64,000 nt of DNA from positions 1-64,000 of the forward strand of contig CAXHJY010001656.1 of assembly GCA_964016885.1 (NCBI GenBank). Reading direction: 5' to 3'. The notes under the pieces are model-generated. The model saw only the letters and a program-made list of their open reading frames with translations. It was not told the DNA's origin and did not search any database. Below are positions 1 through 63,296 of this stretch, in pieces; position 1 is the stretch's first letter; each line of letters starts with the position of its first letter. A program made the position numbers and the translations under genes. Source of the stretch: Eledone cirrhosa. Taxonomy: Eukaryota.

Positions 1-705
1 ACCACTCTCAGAAAGAGGGAGGGGGGGGGGGGGGGGCAGACACAGACAACCAGGTGGGGGGGGGGAGAGAAAACCATATGGACAGAAATAGACAATGAGA
101 GGTGGGGGTATGGTGTTTCTGTGGGGTGGGGCATCCTGTTGATGGTGGGATAAAGGTATGCAGGATGTGAGGAAGAGGAAGAGGAGAGGAGTAACTCTGA
201 AGAGAGGGCTGGGGAGTTGGTATGGGATGCAGCAGAAAGACAACTGAATATAATAGTGAAAACAAAAGGTGGTGATGATGGAAGACAGGTTGGGATATAA
301 TGTGGTTGAGGTGGGGCTGGGGTGGGCGGTGGAGGAACAGGAACGAGGGAGGAGGTAGTATGGCAGAGGGAGGAGGTAGTATGGCAGAGGGAGAGGGTCA
401 GGCTCACCTCCACCCATTTCTCATGACTGGGTGAAATGATTCACTTGTAGGTGGAGTAGGTGATGATGGTACTGGGAGAGAGAGAGAGTGAATGGACTAT
501 ATGGTTATAATAGGGGTAAATGGAAATAGAGAAAGAGAAAAGGGGAGTGAAAGGTAGAAAGAAAGAAAAGAAAAAAGAAAGAAAGGGTGGGGGTGGGGGT
601 TAAGGTGGGCATACATCTGTACATTGAAGGGCATTTAGTAATTTTAAGGTTTACTCAGCAATAATATTTAGGGCATGATGATAATTTGGTGTTTATGTAT
701 CATCA

Positions 706-890
706 GGGACCCCGATGGCTGAGCTTCTGCCGTTTCAACAGCTAGATCCGAACTGTTCAATCTAGCTGTTGAAATGGCAGAAGCTCAGCCGTCTGTGTCC
801 CAAATTTTTCATACTACCCACTCTACTACCCCAAATGTCGGGTACTCTAGTGAGTGATGATCTAACTGGTTTTTACTGCATTCATTCTGA
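706..890 (+). mobile_element. Short palindromic-head PLE derivative (3' half of hammerhead + tail)
   Basis: Hairpin 706-801 centred on GCTAGATCCGAACTGTTCAATCTAGC; tail TACCCACTCTACTACCC; ends in (TA)n. Confidence 0.75.
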
Positions 891-948
891 TATATATATA
901 TATATATATATACTTGAGGTAGTAGAGTGGGTAATAGGAACCAGTAAG

Positions 949-1042
949 ACCCCGACAGCTGAGCTCAAGCCGTTTCGACGGCTAATTCTGGACTAAATGA
1001 ACATTTATCCTGGTATTTAAATAGCCGATCTTCTCAAGGGGT
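949..1042 (-). ncRNA. Type I hammerhead ribozyme with U3-A8 covaried core in the PLE 3' end
   Basis: Minus strand: ACCCC-UUGAGAA-GA(U)CGGCUA...UAGCCGUC-GAAA-CGGC(uugagcuca)GCUG-UC-GGGGU; all three helices pair; GUC cleavage triplet (cut between 954 and 953). Confidence 0.8.
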
Positions 1043-1244
1043 AATTCCATATATGGTCAAAGTGATTGTCAAAAATCAGTAGTAATTCTGTGGTTGCAAA
1101 TTAGTAGGGGAGATGGTGGCTAAACCTGCCAGTAGGAGAAAGAGGGGAGGGGGTGGAGTAGACCCAATCAAGCGTTGGTAGTGCCAGCTACAGCTGGGCA
1201 TGAGGTCAAAGAAGATACAGGGGAGGGGGAGGGGGAGGAAGTCG
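1001..1244. repeat. Arm 1 of 244-bp inverted repeat (partner 4018-4261)
   Basis: Reverse-complement match; no mismatch noticed by eye. Confidence 0.95.
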
Positions 1245-2144
1245 GAACGGTAGGTAGAACAATGGGGGGTAAAAATAGGAAAGAAAAAATACTGAGAGTG
1301 AAGAAAAGCAAATAAGTGTAAAGAAAAAATTAAATTCTACGACCTAGGTGTCAGGCTATTGTTAGGCGAGAATAAAATAAAGAAAGAAAGAAAGAAAGAA
1401 GTAAATAAATAAATAAATAAATAAATAAGGAAATAAGTAAAAGAACTAGGTGGGACGAATTAGGCAAGGACCCTATTAAGAGGTATAAGTACGTAAATGA
1501 TACGGTGACTGGTCAACAAAAGGGGCCAAAATACTAAAGAGACTACCACGAAATAAACAATAAAGGTTTCCATCCCGGGCCAGCAACGACCCAGTGCAGC
1601 AAAGTGAACTTGTACGACATAATAATTCTGAGTCCCGGGAAAAATATATACTAATGCTAACTCTAAAAGATCTAAAACAAGCTACATGAAAGTTCGTACG
1701 AAATAAAGGTAGAATACGGAGAAATAAGTTCAGAATCCACCCCGCCCAGAAGAAAAGCGAAGCAAGAAATACTGAAACGAAAAAATAAGGCATAAGTGCC
1801 ACTAAGAAATATAGAGGGCACAGAGAATAGTGGGAGCGGTCGGAAAAGGGGGGCAAGTATCCGGGGTCTAAGCCAACTGCTATAAAGGGCGGAGTCCGCC
1901 AAATCTATCAAAGACTAGGGGAGGGGGGAGTGGGGGTACTAAGGCTACATGGGGCCAAAGGGCAGCCTCGGGTGGGCGAGAAAAGACGCCGACAAAGGAG
2001 AAGAGCTGGGGTAGAAGGACAAAGGAGAGAGGGGGGAAGGAAATAAAGGATGCGATAAAAGAATACAAAGAAGATCTTACGTCTTCCTTGGCAAGCAGGG
2101 GTTACCCATTGCAAAATCGGCAACTGGGGTGTTATAGCCCTAGT

Positions 2145-3962
2145 CTACCCCCCCGGGTCATTATGGGGTTTGAGGGCGAGGTAAGTCCTACGCAATCTAT
2201 GTTTACATGCAGTAACCAGTTCATCTTTCTTGTTTAGGAGTTGGTCCGTCGAAAACAGCATTTGTAAAGTTTCCTCCGAGCATAAATTGCACGGACGGCG
2301 TCCTCCCGTGTAAGAATTGGCTCTGGACAGTAATCTCCAAGTGAGATCATAGGTGATGTTGTTGTCCTTGAGGTCCCATATGTGGCCCGAAAGTGTAGTG
2401 GCGTGACGCCGGGCCGGGTTTCGGAAGGTATGTCTATGTTGGTATAGCCGGGTCTTGAAGTCACATGCGGTAAGTCCTATATAGGCTTTGTTGGAGGTAT
2501 CCGTCCTCACGTTGCACTGGTAGATCACATTACGGTCTCTGCATCTATTGTCGAGTGGGCAAATAGATCTATCCGGGCAGTTACACCTCCTGGTCGGTTC
2601 TCCACTGCTATTTAGGTTATTTCTGCCATCGGGGTTGAGTTTTTTGTTGTTAGAGGAGACGATGTTTTGTGCGAAGTTTGGTGTAGTGCTGTAAGAGAGT
2701 TTGATGGTATTTTTGTTAATTATGTTGTGGTAGCGGTGTTGTAATGGGAAGTGTTTTTCAATGAGCCTAAAGAATAGTTTCCCGATGGGAGTAGTCACCT
2801 CTGCGTTGTGGGGAGGATTGAACCATGTTACATTGCGTGAGCGGCGGTGTCTCCTGCTGGTTCCGCTAATGGGATCTGGACAGTAGGATATTTCCTCCCG
2901 GAAACCACTCCGCTTGAGGGCCTGGTTGTAATAAGGCGCATGTTCATCGAATATCCGCTCATTAGCTGACAAACGGGATATGCGGAGGGAGATGTTTTTG
3001 ACCAGGTTGTTTGTGATGTTCCTAGGATGGTTTGATCGGCGGTGGATGTAGTGCAGATTGTCATTAGGTTTCCTGTATGGGTAGTACAGGTCGTTTTCGA
3101 GGTCGAGGGTTACGTCCAGGAAGTTTACTCGGGTCAGGGACGTTTGTAGGGTTATTTTAAATCCCCAGTCGCGGAAGAATCTGATTAATTGTTTCCGGAC
3201 CCGATCTGTACTACTGGGGTTGTACCCTTTAAGGGTAAGGAGCCCATCATCACGGTACAATCCACCACCGAATGCAGGAAACATATCAGTGAGTTTGGCT
3301 ATTAGGAATAATCCTATAAGATCAGTGACCTCCGCCGAATCAGTGGCGCCCATGCTGACGTCGAAGGGTGAGTCGGGAGCTCTTTTTATCCATTTAGAGT
3401 CGTCAAAGAGTAAGACTGTCTTCCTGGCGTGGAGGATGATTTTTCTTTCCTGGTCGGTGATGGGCACGAGTGTTTCGGCGAAGTCCAAGGCGGCAGTAAG
3501 TAGCGGTAAGGTGATTGAAGCATAGTAGCTCTCTATGTCGAACTGTATGAATTTAGTTTCTCGTTTATCCTCCATATTGCTGAACCAGGAGATTACTTCC
3601 TGGGTGTTGATCCATAGGCTAAGTCGGGTGTGTTGCTTGACTTTTGGTATCACGCGGTCTAGGATTTTTTTGCTGATTCTCCCTATGTCGGACTTCGTTG
3701 GGTTAATAAGCCTGATGGAGGGTTTACGGTCAAAATCGGATTTATGGTCCTTCAGTGTGAAGTATGGTGTCCGTGGGTCTAGAGGTTCCGTGCGGTCGGC
3801 GACCCCGAGGCTGGAGGTGATTTGTTGTCCATCTCGATTTATGTCCTCGATGCAAGAGTGGTTGGCCTTTTTATAGGTGGAGTTTAGGCTGCTCCTGATC
3901 AGTGTGTGGTATCTGTCAGGGTTGACAAAGTATAGGTTCCCAGTTTTATCCGAATGCACCAT
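2145..3962 (-). CDS. PLE reverse transcriptase + GIY-YIG endonuclease (605 aa from first Met; frame stays open upstream to the junction at ~4017, so N-terminally truncated)
   Basis: RT motifs SDKT, FDIESYY, SMGATDS, LYRDDGL, NFLDVTL, YRKP; Cys linker CNC-x5-CPL-x3-C; GIY-YIG as NVIY...YIGLT; C-terminal CNLC-x-EE...LLNKKDEL...CKH; no internal stops. Confidence 0.93.
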   Translation of the reverse strand: MVHSDKTGNLYFVNPDRYHTLIRSSLNSTYKKANHSCIEDINRDGQQITSSLGVADRTEPLDPRTPYFTLKDHKSDFDRKPSIRLINPTKSDIGRISKKILDRVIPKVKQHTRLSLWINTQEVISWFSNMEDKRETKFIQFDIESYYASITLPLLTAALDFAETLVPITDQERKIILHARKTVLLFDDSKWIKRAPDSPFDVSMGATDSAEVTDLIGLFLIAKLTDMFPAFGGGLYRDDGLLTLKGYNPSSTDRVRKQLIRFFRDWGFKITLQTSLTRVNFLDVTLDLENDLYYPYRKPNDNLHYIHRRSNHPRNITNNLVKNISLRISRLSANERIFDEHAPYYNQALKRSGFREEISYCPDPISGTSRRHRRSRNVTWFNPPHNAEVTTPIGKLFFRLIEKHFPLQHRYHNIINKNTIKLSYSTTPNFAQNIVSSNNKKLNPDGRNNLNSSGEPTRRCNCPDRSICPLDNRCRDRNVIYQCNVRTDTSNKAYIGLTACDFKTRLYQHRHTFRNPARRHATTLSGHIWDLKDNNITYDLTWRLLSRANSYTGGRRPCNLCSEETLQMLFSTDQLLNKKDELVTACKHRLRRTYLALKPHNDPGG

Positions 3963-4017
3963 GATGTCATTTGTGTTATCATACTCTGTTAAGTTGCTAC
4001 GGAGTTTTTGTAGGAAT

Positions 4018-4257
4018 CGACTTCCTCCCCCTCCCCCTCCCCTGTATCTTCTTTGACCTCATGCCCAGCTGTAGCTGGCACTACCAACGCTTGATTGGGT
4101 CTACTCCACCCCCTCCCCTCTTTCTCCTACTGGCAGGTTTAGCCACCATCTCCCCTACTAATTTGCAACCACAGAATTACTACTGATTTTTGACAATCAC
4201 TTTGACCATATATGGAATTACCCCTTGAGAAGATCGGCTATTTAAATACCAGGATAA

Positions 4258-4261
<4 letters not shown>
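4018..4261. repeat. Arm 2 of 244-bp inverted repeat (inverted pLTR-like segment)
   Basis: Reverse complement of 1001-1244; interrupts the ORF frame at 4017 and runs into (TA)n. Confidence 0.95.
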
Positions 4262-4309
<48 letters not shown>

Positions 4310-36662: not shown

Positions 36663-36667
<5 letters not shown>

Positions 36668-36771
36668 AACGAGTAGGACCCCGACTCGTTCCTATTACCC
36701 ACTCTACTACCCTAAGTATTGAGTACTTTCGTGCGTTATGGTCCACCTGGTTCCTTACCACATTTCCTTCG

Positions 36772-36772
<1 letters not shown>
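36663..36772 (+). mobile_element. Short PLE derivative, same family (small fold-back head)
   Basis: ATAGGAACGAGT...ACTCGTTCCTAT hairpin then TACCCACTCTACTACCCTAAGTATTGAGTAC tail; flanked by (TA)n. Confidence 0.75.
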
Positions 36773-36811
<39 letters not shown>

Positions 36812-39425: not shown

Positions 39426-39620
39426 GAAAAGAGTCAGGACCCCGACGGCTGAACTCTGACCGTTTCGACAGCTAGATCCGAACAGTTCAGATCTAGCTGT
39501 CGAAAAGGCCGGAGCTCAGCTGTCAGGGTCCTGACTCTTTTCCTATTACCCACTCTACTACCCTAAGTATCGAGTACTCTGGTGCGTTGTGGTCCACCTG
39601 GTTTCTTTCCACACTTTCTT

Positions 39621-39622
<2 letters not shown>
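39426..39622 (+). mobile_element. Short palindromic-head PLE derivative
   Basis: Hairpin 39426-39542, family tail, (TA)n at 3' end. Confidence 0.8.
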
Positions 39623-39662
<40 letters not shown>

Positions 39663-45666: not shown

Positions 45667-45859
45667 TAGGAAAAAGTATGACCCCGACGGTAGAGCTCAA
45701 GCCGTTTCGACGACTATTTCTAGTCCAGAAATAGCCGTCGAAACGGCTTGAGCTCTGCCGTCGGGGTCATACTTTTTCCTATTACCCACTCTACTACCCT
45801 AAGTATTGAGTACTTTGGTGCGTTATGGTCCATCTGGTTCCTTACCACAATTCCTTCGC
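45667..45859 (+). mobile_element. Short palindromic-head PLE derivative closest to the coding element
   Basis: TAGTCCAGAAATAGCCGTCGAAACGGCTTGAGCTC nearly matches the minus strand of 961-995; hairpin 45667-45781; short TA run after tail. Confidence 0.8.
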
Positions 45860-46094
45860 TATATATATAGGACAATTTCTAAACAACTCACCCACTAAAC
45901 CTTAACCATCATCATTGTCATCACCGTCAACAATAACAATATAAGCATAAATAATAAATCATGATAACAACACCAACTTTGTGAAAGGAGGAGTAGAGAA
46001 AGATAGATACTTGTTGATAAGTATCTATTTTATAGTCATCCACTCTCTCTTTCTCCCTCCCTCTCTTTCTCTGTATATCTATATATGTGCCTAG

Positions 46095-57525: not shown

Positions 57526-57710
57526 AGGGAAAGAGTCAGGACTCTGGCAACTGAGCTCCGGACGTTTCGACGGCTAGTCCGGATCTAGGTGTCGAAACGG
57601 CCGGAGCTCAGCCGTCGGGGTCCTACCTCTTTTCCTATTATCCACTCTACTACTCTAAGTATTGAGTACACTGTTGCGTTATGGTCTACCTGGTTTTTTT
57701 ACCACACCCT
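57526..57710 (+). mobile_element. Short palindromic-head PLE derivative
   Basis: Hairpin head, GAAACGGCCGGAGCTCAGCCGTCGGGGTCC, family tail; TA runs on both sides. Confidence 0.78.
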
Positions 57711-57822: not shown

Positions 57823-58004
<182 letters not shown>

Positions 58005-58029
58005 ATATATATATATATATATATGTATG

Positions 58030-58228
<199 letters not shown>

Positions 58229-58277
58229 GTATGTATATATATATATGTATGTATATATGTATGTATATATATATATG

Positions 58278-58308
<31 letters not shown>

Positions 58309-58326
58309 GCATATATATATATGTAT

Positions 58327-58366
<40 letters not shown>

Positions 58367-58415
58367 GTATGTATATATATATATATATATATGTATGTAT
58401 ATATATATATGTATG

Positions 58416-58446
<31 letters not shown>

Positions 58447-58461
58447 ATATATATATGTATG

Positions 58462-58640
<179 letters not shown>

Positions 58641-58664
58641 TGAGAGGAGAATATCCAGGAGAGA

Positions 58665-59062
58665 TGACCCCTTAGCCTTTGTCAAGGCAGAATTCTAGGA
58701 GAAGGAAAACTCTGATATAACACCTGCAACCCTGATGGTATCCAATGATGTTGACTTGTTCTTCTTTTTGGTACATATCATCTTGGTTAAGAGAGTGGGA
58801 CTGGCTTTGTGCAGTGCCTTTGCTCACTATAAAAGCTTCACGGCACAGGCATTGCTTTATATCTGGAGATCTCTCTGCACTTGTCACATGGTACCATGGG
58901 CCCAGCACTATGTGTCAATAATGGTCACAGGTGTAGTCTTTGTACCAGAGTTTTCAAGTCGCTGGCTGGACTAAAAAGTCACATTCGTTCAGCGCATCGG
59001 TAAGGGTTCTCCTACATGGATATAAAGTAGTGGCCGTACTCGAAAACGAGTTGGCAGCCACC
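58665..59062 (+). mobile_element. ~400-bp non-autonomous RTE-like element ending in C2H2 zinc-finger remnant (copy 1)
   Basis: CTAGGAGAAGGAAAACTCTGA head; 58932-59003 reads [23 protein letters not shown]; embedded in (TA)n. Confidence 0.6.
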
Positions 59063-59121
59063 ATATATATATGTATGTATATATATATATATATGTATGT
59101 ATATATATATATATATGTATG

Positions 59122-59154
<33 letters not shown>

Positions 59155-59179
59155 ATATATAAATATATATATGTATGTA

Positions 59180-59226
<47 letters not shown>

Positions 59227-59249
59227 ATGTATATATATATATATATGTA

Positions 59250-59473
<224 letters not shown>

Positions 59474-59956
59474 TATATATATATATATATATATGTATAT
59501 GTATGTATATATATATGTATATATGTATATATATATATATGTATATATGTATGTATATATATATGTATGTATATATATATGTATATATATATGTATGTAT
59601 GTATATATATATGTATGTATGTATATATGTATGTATATATATATGTATATATGTATGTATGTATATATATATGTATATATGTATGTATATATATATGTAT
59701 ATATATATGTATGTATATATATATGTATATATGTATGTATATATATATGTATATATGTATGTATATATGTATATATGTATGTATATATGTATGTATATAT
59801 ATATATGTATGTATATATATATGTATATATATTATGTATATATATATATATGTATATATATATATGTCTATTTATATATATATGTATATATATATGTATA
59901 TATATGTATATATATATGTATATATGTATATTTATAAATATATGTATATATATATG

Positions 59957-60107
<151 letters not shown>

Positions 60108-60184
60108 GTATATATATATGTATATATATATGTATATATATATGTATATATAAATGTATATATATATGTATATGTATATGTATA

Positions 60185-60277
<93 letters not shown>

Positions 60278-60278
60278 G

Positions 60279-60374
<96 letters not shown>

Positions 60375-60376
60375 TG

Positions 60377-60487
<111 letters not shown>

Positions 60488-60507
60488 GTACATGTATATA
60501 TATATAC

Positions 60508-60691
<184 letters not shown>

Positions 60692-61092
60692 AGACCCCTT
60701 AGCCTTTGTCAAGGCAGAATTCTAGGAGAAGGAAAACTCTGATATAACACCTGCAACCCTGATGGTATCCAATGATGTTGACTTGTTCTTCTTTTTGGTA
60801 CATATCATCTTGGCTAAGAGAGTGGGACTGGCTTTGTGCAGTGCCTTTGCTCACTATAAAAGCTTCACGGCACAGGCATTGCTTTATATCTGGAGATCTC
60901 TCTGCACTTGTCGTCAGATGGTACCATGGGCCCAGCACTATGTGTCAATAATTGTCAAAAGTGTAGTGTTTGTACCAGAGTTTTCAAATCGCTGGCTAGA
61001 CTAAAATGTCACACTCGTTCAGCGCATCGGTAGGGGTCCTCCTACATGGATATAAAGTAGTGGCCGTACTCGAAAACGAGTTGGCAGCCACC
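60692..61092 (+). mobile_element. ~400-bp non-autonomous RTE-like element (copy 2)
   Basis: Direct repeat of 58665-59062; 60962-61033 reads [23 protein letters not shown]. Confidence 0.6.
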
Positions 61093-61184
61093 ATGTATGT
61101 ATGTATATATATATATATATATGTATGCATATATATGTATGTATGTATGTATGTATTTATGTATATATATATAAATGTATGTAT

Positions 61185-61225
<41 letters not shown>

Positions 61226-61381
61226 TATATATGTATGTATGGATATATATATGTATGTATGGATATATATATGTATGTATGGATATATATATGTATGTAT
61301 GGATATATATATGTATGTATGGATATATATATATATGTATGTATGTATATATATATGTATGTATGTATATATATATGTATG

Positions 61382-61483
<102 letters not shown>

Positions 61484-61553
61484 TATGTATATATATATGT
61501 ATGTAAATATATATGTATGTATATATATATATGTATGTAAATATATATGTATG

Positions 61554-61584
<31 letters not shown>

Positions 61585-62360
61585 ATATATATATTATATA
61601 TATATATATGTATGTATATATATATATTATATATATATTATATATATATATAAGTATATATATATATATGTTTATATATGTATGTATATATATTATATAT
61701 ATATGTATATATATTATATATGTATATATATATTATATATGTATATATATATTGTATATGTATATATATATATTATATATGTATATATATACATTATATA
61801 TGTATATATATACATTATATATGTATATATATATATATATTATATATGTATATATATATATATTATATATGTATATATATATATTATATGTATATATATA
61901 TATATATTATATATGTGTATATATATATATTATATATGTGTATATATATATATTATATATGTGTATATATATATATTATATATGTGTATATATATATATT
62001 ATATATGTGTATATATATATATTATATATGTATATATATATATATATTATATATGTGTATATATATATATTATATATGTGTATATATATATATTATATAT
62101 GTATATATATATATATTATATATGTGTATATATATATATTATATACGTATATATATATATTATATATGTATATATATATATTATATAGGTATATATGTAT
62201 ATATATTATATATGTATATATATATATTATATATGTATATATGTATATATATATATGTATGTATATATATGTATATATACGTAAATATATATGTATATAT
62301 ATATATTATATATGTATATATGTATATATATATATGTATGTATATATATGTATATATACG

Positions 62361-62391
<31 letters not shown>

Positions 62392-62460
62392 GTATATATG
62401 TGTATATATGTATATATGTGTATATATATATATATGTATGTATATATATGTATATATACG

Positions 62461-62493
<33 letters not shown>

Positions 62494-62587
62494 GTATATA
62501 TGTGTATATATGTATATATATGTATATATGTATATATGTTGTATATATATGTATATATATGTATATATATGTATATATATGTATATA

Positions 62588-62618
<31 letters not shown>

Positions 62619-62773
62619 CATATATATTTATATATATATATGTATATACATGTATATATATATATATGCATATATATGTATATATGTATATATGTATATA
62701 TATGTATATAAGTATATATATATATGTATATAAGTATATATGTATATATATATATATCCATATATAATATATG

Positions 62774-62811
<38 letters not shown>

Positions 62812-62877
62812 CGTATATATGTATATACATATGTAATATATGTATATATATATATATATATGCATGTGTGTGTGTGT

Positions 62878-62952
<75 letters not shown>

Positions 62953-63112
62953 TGTGTTTGTGTGTATATATATATATATATGCGTGTGTGTGTATATATA
63001 TATGCGTGTGTGTGTGTATATATATGCGTGTGTGTGTATATATATATGCGTGTGTGTGTATATATATATGCGTGTGTGTGTATATATATATGCGTGTGTG
63101 TGTATATATATG

Positions 63113-63195
<83 letters not shown>

Positions 63196-63220
63196 AGTGG
63201 TAGATTTATCTGTGTATATA

Positions 63221-63296
<76 letters not shown>

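Follow-up and report, generated by a model that had tools for sequence, protein, structure and literature searches.

Copies of a Penelope-like element (PLE) in Eledone cirrhosa show a sharp excess of 5' ends exactly at G1.1, the first base downstream of the cleavage site predicted for the hammerhead ribozyme in the terminal repeat (pLTR) of the element. This excess likely records cleavage by the ribozyme in vivo. The ribozyme was examined in a window of 64,000 nucleotides, which comprises positions 1-64,000 of the forward strand of contig CAXHJY010001656.1 (assembly GCA_964016885.1). We consider it probable that this type I hammerhead, which has a U3-A8 core and lies in the terminal repeat of a young PLE assigned to the Hydra clade, cleaves itself in vivo after C17 in a minority of RNAs. 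The motif belongs to a known type, in an architectural form that is new, and the new result is the genomic footprint at the cut site. Whether and why PLE hammerheads cut in living cells is described as open in three earlier papers (PMC4209133, PMC8557442, PMC11167929). If genomic 5' ends peak at the cut site within a single base, this would amount to direct fossil evidence that cleavage took place.

Positions in the element are numbered relative to the cut, with +1 at window position 953 (G1.1) and -1 at 954 (C17), and the coordinates of all features are collected in Table 1. On the minus strand, helix I pairs 1042-1038 with 953-949 and the core occupies 1037-1031, with U3 at 1037 and A8 at 1032. 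Helix II pairs 1030-1022 with 984-977 and contains a single bulged U, and helix III pairs 973-969 with 959-955. Cleavage is predicted from the structure of the motif between 954 and 953. The hammerhead fold is the minimum-free-energy structure, with pair probabilities of 0.61-0.99 across helices I-III. Helices I, II and III pair as they had originally been drawn, and the proposed extension of helix I across the bulge (1048-1043 with 942-937) is likewise present in the predicted fold. For the extra hairpin that had been placed in loop II, the tip is not supported: its tip pair has a probability of 0.0, and the tip is not conserved across subfamilies.

Table 1. Positions of the hammerhead, its host element and neighbouring features in the window
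Feature	Position	Strand	Basis or remark
Type I hammerhead with helix I extension	937..1048	minus	motif reading, fold, descriptor, covariation
Loop III, 9 nt, with 8-nt palindrome; predicted dimerisation site	960..968	minus	duplex energy prediction
Loop II zone with most genomic 5' ends (-35 to -46); putative transcription start or RNA 5' end	988..999	minus	94 tail-anchored copies
Start of tail downstream of the cut	910..953	minus	window copy ends at about +42 to +44; most copies at +20 or about +98
5'-truncated body of PLE, assigned to Hydra clade	910..4019	minus	unit positions 470-3531 plus +1..+44; 99.8% identity to intact unit
ORF with RT and C-terminal GIY-YIG-type domain	2145..4019	minus	open to stop; ~93 first codons missing relative to intact 717-aa ORF
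Inverted pLTR arm (unit 3241-3484)	4018..4261	plus	only hammerhead 5' half; ends at -48, in loop II, next to (TA)n
(TA)n target microsatellite, 3' side	889..912		repeat annotation
(TA)n target microsatellite, other side	4261..4306		repeat annotation
Older-subfamily palindromic insertion	694..813		head-to-head joint inside loop II; hammerhead 3' halves only

The folding energy of the hammerhead was no better than that of shuffled sequences (z -0.22), and support for the motif was therefore taken from its geometry. A type I descriptor that allowed either 3-8 pair gave a single match in the 64-kb window, which is the present motif, and 0 matches in 100 doublet-shuffled windows. The window copy has a Watson-Crick 3-8 pair (U3-A8), and the bulge in helix I and the long loop II are both present. 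U4, G5, A6, A9, A13-A15 and U16.1 were invariant in 53 of 53 aligned rows, which had been picked with the core pattern. The window motif is a real type I hammerhead. Rfam returned no hammerhead at the gathering score (0 matches) and none among 23 matches at E<=10, probably owing to the long loop II and the variant core.

The unusual parts of the window hammerhead are its 9-nt loop III and its 37-nt loop II. The minimal PLE hammerhead (min-HHR) is defined by a helix III that is absent or of 1-2 bp and by an extra base between 9 and 10.1; the present motif falls outside this definition, having a helix III of 4-5 bp and no extra base there. The length of helix III had been presented as atypical; it does differ from that of minimal PLE hammerheads, but 3-4 bp is normal for hammerheads of the Hydra clade. 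For the loop III palindrome, energy prediction favours a duplex over two monomer hairpins by about 16.5 kcal/mol, compared with a predicted dimer advantage of 13.9 kcal/mol when the palindrome is shortened. The 6-nt centre of the palindrome is kept in most of the aligned subfamilies.

The hammerhead sits at the 3' end of a 5'-truncated element that is flanked by (TA)n tracts and accompanied by an inverted arm. The intact unit of this element is 3,531 bp long, has a 717-aa ORF and occurs in genomic tandem arrays, where four hammerhead copies stand at the exact spacing of the unit. Judged by sequence identity, the element carrying the hammerhead is young: the window copy is nearly identical to the intact unit, and the 186 nt of the element end were 100% identical in 40 of 40 scored genomic matches. 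Searches of the ORF against Pfam and PDB sequences gave no match, and its Atlas neighbours were PLE-like clusters at 0.96-0.99, the value being 0.99 for a cluster with cnidarian members. Using the definition of the Hydra clade given by Craig et al. (PMC8557442), we read in the 717-aa ORF the motif DKT, a CxCX5C linker, and CxxC and CxH flanking E and N, with RWR replacing RWK. By-eye comparison showed that the ORF also resembles Hydra-1_Obim. Other Hydra-clade traits found were (TA)n targeting, a pLTR, tandem and inverted structure, and a tail. The clade tends to a length under 3 kb (PMC8557442), which is a tendency and not a rule, and the unit of 3,531 bp exceeds it because of a 1.2-kb 3' UTR. 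We assign the host element, by its motifs and its by-eye likeness, to the Hydra-clade EN+ PLEs. The initial identification of a type I hammerhead set in the pLTR of a young PLE was upheld in both respects.

In another copy of the element (L061:6268-8607), the frame of the ORF is already open at +2 downstream of the cut, 63 codons ahead of the first ATG, so that a cleaved RNA would begin almost in frame with the ORF. A second organism (organism B, run X5) carries close relatives of the pLTR and the tail.

Genome-wide, 6,162 cores were counted in one pattern context. These comprised 4,556 with U3-A8, 1,534 (25%) with C3·A8 and 72 with G8, the last divided into 12 C3-G8 and 60 U3·G8. The 3-8 pair is not strictly conserved in the family; mismatched C3·A8 copies still spread, and transposition continued despite the mismatch. 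U3-A8 also predominates in an older subfamily (245 matches). Position 7 of the core takes all four bases among different subfamilies, and this freedom to vary confirms that the register of the core had been read correctly. The 26 Hydra rows that Craig et al. give in supplementary file S2 all have C3-G8, with a helix III of mostly 3-4 bp (PMC8557442), and the double change to U3-A8 was therefore made in the present family. The original prediction regarded U3-A8 as a compensated pair kept by selection. The double change stands, but the mismatch in so many copies speaks against a pair that was always maintained. The novelty of the core had been overstated, as natural U3-A8 hammerhead cores have been reported as active in vitro (Perreault et al. 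2011, PMC3088659) and U3-A8 has been described in PLE pLTRs, with about 1,300 matches in Schistosoma mansoni (Cervera and De la Pena 2014, PMC4209133). Both the U3-A8 variant type and the longer helix III were already known.

Covariation was assessed in an alignment of the window copy with 52 of the 84 distinct hammerheads from the loci read, hand-chosen to cover the subfamilies. In these 53 rows, two-sided changes were present at 4 of 11 pairs of helix II, in single rows only in helix III, and at no pair of helix I. Over the whole structure, 45 cells were changed on both sides, which was reached by 0 of 500 shuffles, and 6 pairs had a two-sided change, which was reached by 207 of 500 shuffles and is unremarkable; the covariation counts are inflated by related copies. 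The 3-8 pair was U-A in 35 rows, U-G in 6 and unpaired in 12, and never changed on both sides. The covariation anticipated among genomic copies was thus found in helix II, but changes at the 3-8 pair were one-sided only. Divergence of the tails (up to 25 in each group) was 0.040-0.046 in the older groups and 0.018-0.021 in the younger. Taken with a tree of 86 rows, which has a midpoint root and a bootstrap that is not settled, these values suggest that the order along the lineage was U3-A8, then C3·A8, then U3-A8 again.

We also compared the abundance of different parts of the element. The 3' half of the hammerhead gave 68,290 genomic matches (control 0), the tail 36,895 and the 5' cores about 6,200. 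The anatomy of copies was read from 94 tail-anchored copies in the first ~18 Mb of contig C1. The 5' ends of these copies lay at -46 to -35 in 48 cases, at -59 to -47 in 3 and at -129 to -60 in none, and the whole ribozyme was spanned by 7 of the 94. An inverted arm was found by a script rule within 20 nt in 78 of the 87 truncated copies, 4 of these being probably spurious tail matches. For the 78 inverted arms, the start lies at -46 to -35 in 53 and the end at +20 in 64. Both arms bear the same subfamily tag in 71 of 76 palindromes. A step in depth at about -45 was seen in the contigs of DNA runs X1 and X4, which are possibly from the assembly's own sample; a search of sequencing runs listed no RNA run that carries the sequence. 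At the other end, copies have two 3' ends, at +20 and about +98, which by analogy would match the two internal RT start sites of the anole PLE (PMC11167929).

The concentration of 5' ends at -35 to -46 forms a wall within loop II. Among the copies read it is 12 nt broad, whereas the class at +1 is sharp, a breadth that would speak for a second RNA cut in loop II, or a block by protein or structure, in place of a transcription start. The 3' end of the inverted arm in the window, at -48, adjoins the wall and could hint at a break in the RNA, although this is one case. We nevertheless regard a cut or block as rather unlikely. The strongest barrier, helix II, is located downstream (-24) and is passed in most cases, and in the aligned subfamilies the wall has a pyrimidine-A-rich sequence, which we take to be initiator-like. 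The Penelope element of D. virilis has an internal promoter within its pLTR (PMC2377424), and on this precedent the template end in loop II is most likely the transcription start.

Snap-back of tail cDNA was considered as the sole origin of the palindromes and was rejected, as the inverted arm often extends further 5' than the tail arm. Two further recurrent classes of junction were noted (L274, L280, L282, L286), one centred on the loop III palindrome and the other a deletion between a short direct repeat located where helices II and III end.

The footprint at the cut site was counted as tail arms with three non-native bases upstream. Genome-wide, this gave 703 raw 5' ends at +1. Counts at four control positions were 33 at -3, 51 at -1, 55 at +2 and 52 at +5, where the filter at +5 is more permissive and the count at -1 includes +1 ends preceded by a chance C. 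Among 100 matches listed of the 703, 42 were G-run slippage, 49 had A/T at -1 (3 of them a one-base deletion) and 9 had another G context. Extrapolation from these 100 matches places the strict +1 class at about 325-345. When 30 of the +1 loci were read, 21 proved to be true junctions, 8 were slippage and 1 was a deletion. The inverted arm also ended at +1 in 10 of the true junctions and nearly so in 2; the others abut the microsatellite directly (5), join other arms (3) or join ORF sequence (1). Head-to-head joints in which both arms end at +1, separated by 1-3 bases, were matched 375 times, or about twice per locus; the separating sequence is most often a single A/T. About 15 of ~54 loci among the matches listed belong to an ambiguous class with native bases in the middle. 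At one locus (L315, around 1503), ORF sequence is fused directly to +1, as if RT had jumped from the 5' end of a cleaved RNA into the middle of another template.

The pile-up of genomic 5' ends coincides with the cut site originally predicted, between 954 and 953, and offers indirect support for activity. It might also have arisen without cleavage, through a minor transcription start at C|G, RT stopping at the G run or at helix III, or repair with a preference for the G run; the hammerhead would then be a conserved silent fold. A pyrimidine-purine step such as C|G suits a polymerase II start, G microhomology is possible at some +1 junctions (L305, L308) and more so in the mixed subfamily described below, and the footprint does not follow the 3-8 pair in all subfamilies. 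However, the peak is one base wide and falls on a site that the structure had already predicted. RT halted by helix III should leave ends at -1, a position with a count of 51, and the bases added at +1 are mostly A/T and not the G expected from a cap. Both arms, moreover, often end at +1 together. An origin without cleavage is in our judgement improbable, and we favour ribozyme cleavage as the source of the +1 ends.

We next consider the footprint in individual subfamilies. In the window's subfamily, 245 arms start at +1 compared with 14,680 intact sites, a share of at least 1.6% that is higher after allowing for the filter. The clean double-ended footprint was about 1.0% in the U3-U7-A8 subfamily (41 of ~4,200), 0.60% in the window's subfamily (36 of 100 matches listed of 245), about 0.15% in a mixed subfamily (15 of 100 matches listed of 167, over 16,759), about 0.2% in an older, mostly C3·A8 subfamily (3 matches from 2 loci, in a total of roughly 1,350) and about 0.05%, the lowest value, in an older U3-A8 subfamily with a shortened palindrome (6 of ~11,000); for three subfamilies the denominator rests on 100 matches listed of 16,853, and the signatures used in the counts vary by one base. 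The mixed subfamily has C3·A8 in 73 of 100 matches listed. Its footprint is about a quarter of that in the similarly aged window subfamily, a drop that matches its U3 share. Since the footprint is smallest in the older U3-A8 subfamily, its size is not predicted by the 3-8 pair alone, and a broken palindrome or age may matter for it. The proposal that only U3-A8 RNAs are cut was rejected, since it fits two subfamilies and fails for the older U3-A8 subfamily. In the portion of the literature that was covered, we found no prior report of PLE 5' ends at a hammerhead cut or of a start site inside loop II.

These results are consistent with the following course of events. Reverse transcription would start internally at +20 and about +98 and run as far as the template's 5' end. 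Most templates would begin in loop II (-35 to -46), likely at the element's own start site, and would carry only the 3' half of the ribozyme, which would preclude cutting in cis. From such templates would come the short head-to-head palindromes that lie in (TA)n in their tens of thousands. RNAs produced by read-through and containing the complete ribozyme would at times be cleaved after C17, possibly as dimers formed through the loop III palindrome, and would leave copies beginning at +1. Run-off of the cDNA would add an untemplated base, and two cDNA ends would be joined. Cleavage is probably not required for transposition, and the expansion of C3·A8 copies together with the loop II wall suggests that it is a side route and not an obligatory step.

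Cervera and De la Pena proposed a circular-RNA model for PLE hammerheads (PMC4209133), under which cleavage would be essential here, with unit-length RNA released, circularised and copied into tandem arrays. The four hammerheads at the exact spacing of the 3,531-bp unit accord with this model, as does conservation of the core across subfamilies, and re-ligated circles would leave no footprint. Against it, the C3·A8 mismatch is present in at least 1,534 full cores of subfamilies that expanded, only a few percent of arms start at +1, and read-through of existing tandems accounts for the arrays without circles. We consider an essential role very improbable and retain cleavage as a side route. More tentatively, the element's own transcript might start in loop II and so split the hammerhead, with the substrate half at the RNA 5' end and the enzyme half at the 3' end. 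Cleavage would thus be confined to RNAs that arise by read-through, form dimers or pair end to end, and the genome could hold a fossil record that quantifies in vivo activity for every core and loop III variant, the mismatch phase and the reversion included. The counting of junctions is applicable to any PLE-rich genome, the footprint makes the question of in vivo cleavage testable, and the series of subfamilies supplies natural ribozyme variants ready for assay.

Among the closest known systems are the hammerheads of Cercyon PLEs in S. mansoni (PMC4209133). Like the present ones, these are type I motifs in the pLTR with U3-A8, a long helix II, G10.1-C11.1 and a palindromic loop III, and they lie 100-700 bp apart on opposite strands. 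Unlike Cercyon, the present hammerhead has a stable helix III of 4-5 bp, a 9-nt loop III, a 37-nt loop II and no extra base between 9 and 10.1, and C3·A8 copies make up a large sub-population of its family, which also shows a footprint of 5' ends at the cut site. By that paper's own statement, in vivo evidence for PLE hammerheads was absent at the time (PMC4209133).

The Hydra-clade PLEs, such as Hydra-1_Obim (PMC8557442), share with the present element a single ORF with C-terminal EN, RW[K/R], DKT, the CxCX5C linker, CxxC and CxH around E and N, (TA)n targeting, a hammerhead near the 3' end and a helix III of 3-4 bp. The published Hydra rows differ in having C3-G8, a loop II of at most about 10 nt and a loop III of at most 3 nt, and the elements are usually <3 kb, compared with 3.5 kb here (PMC8557442).

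The anole Poseidon element PAc (Frangieh et al. 2024, PMC11167929) resembles the present element in its AT-rich targets, in two internal RT starts (putative here) that delimit the tail, and in a hammerhead upstream of the RT starts, which insertion does not require in PAc and probably does not require here. The tail measures about 80 nt in the present element and 30-40 nt in the D. virilis case cited in that paper, and the ATG is 191 nt after the cut here but inside helix II in PAc (PMC11167929). Ends at the cut site were seen here in DNA copies, whereas for PAc no RNA read had its start or its end at the cut and the insertion of ribozyme mutants was normal (PMC11167929), which counts against in vivo cleavage. 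In R2 elements, which have an HDV-like ribozyme (PMC3774820), cleavage likewise sets the template 5' end and is recorded in genomic junctions. The R2 ribozyme is of another class, and its cut is the normal 5' end of full-length copies rather than that of a few percent of copies (PMC3774820).

The window contains further traces of the same family. Head-to-head insertions of different subfamilies of the element, all in (TA)n-rich sites, are present at 36665-36778, 39426-39623, 45668-45865 and 57527-57706. Three of these four short insertions are joined in or near loop II, and one has an inverted arm ending near the cut site. The older palindromic insertion at 694-813 has a perfect 34-bp core to which numerous miRNA precursor models give weak scores, below the gathering scores; palindromes of this kind, present in tens of thousands, could be a source of hairpin RNAs or of siRNAs directed at the element. 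At 57861-63288 lies a degenerate (TA)n array about 5.4 kb long, with about 2,700 units and 73% matches.
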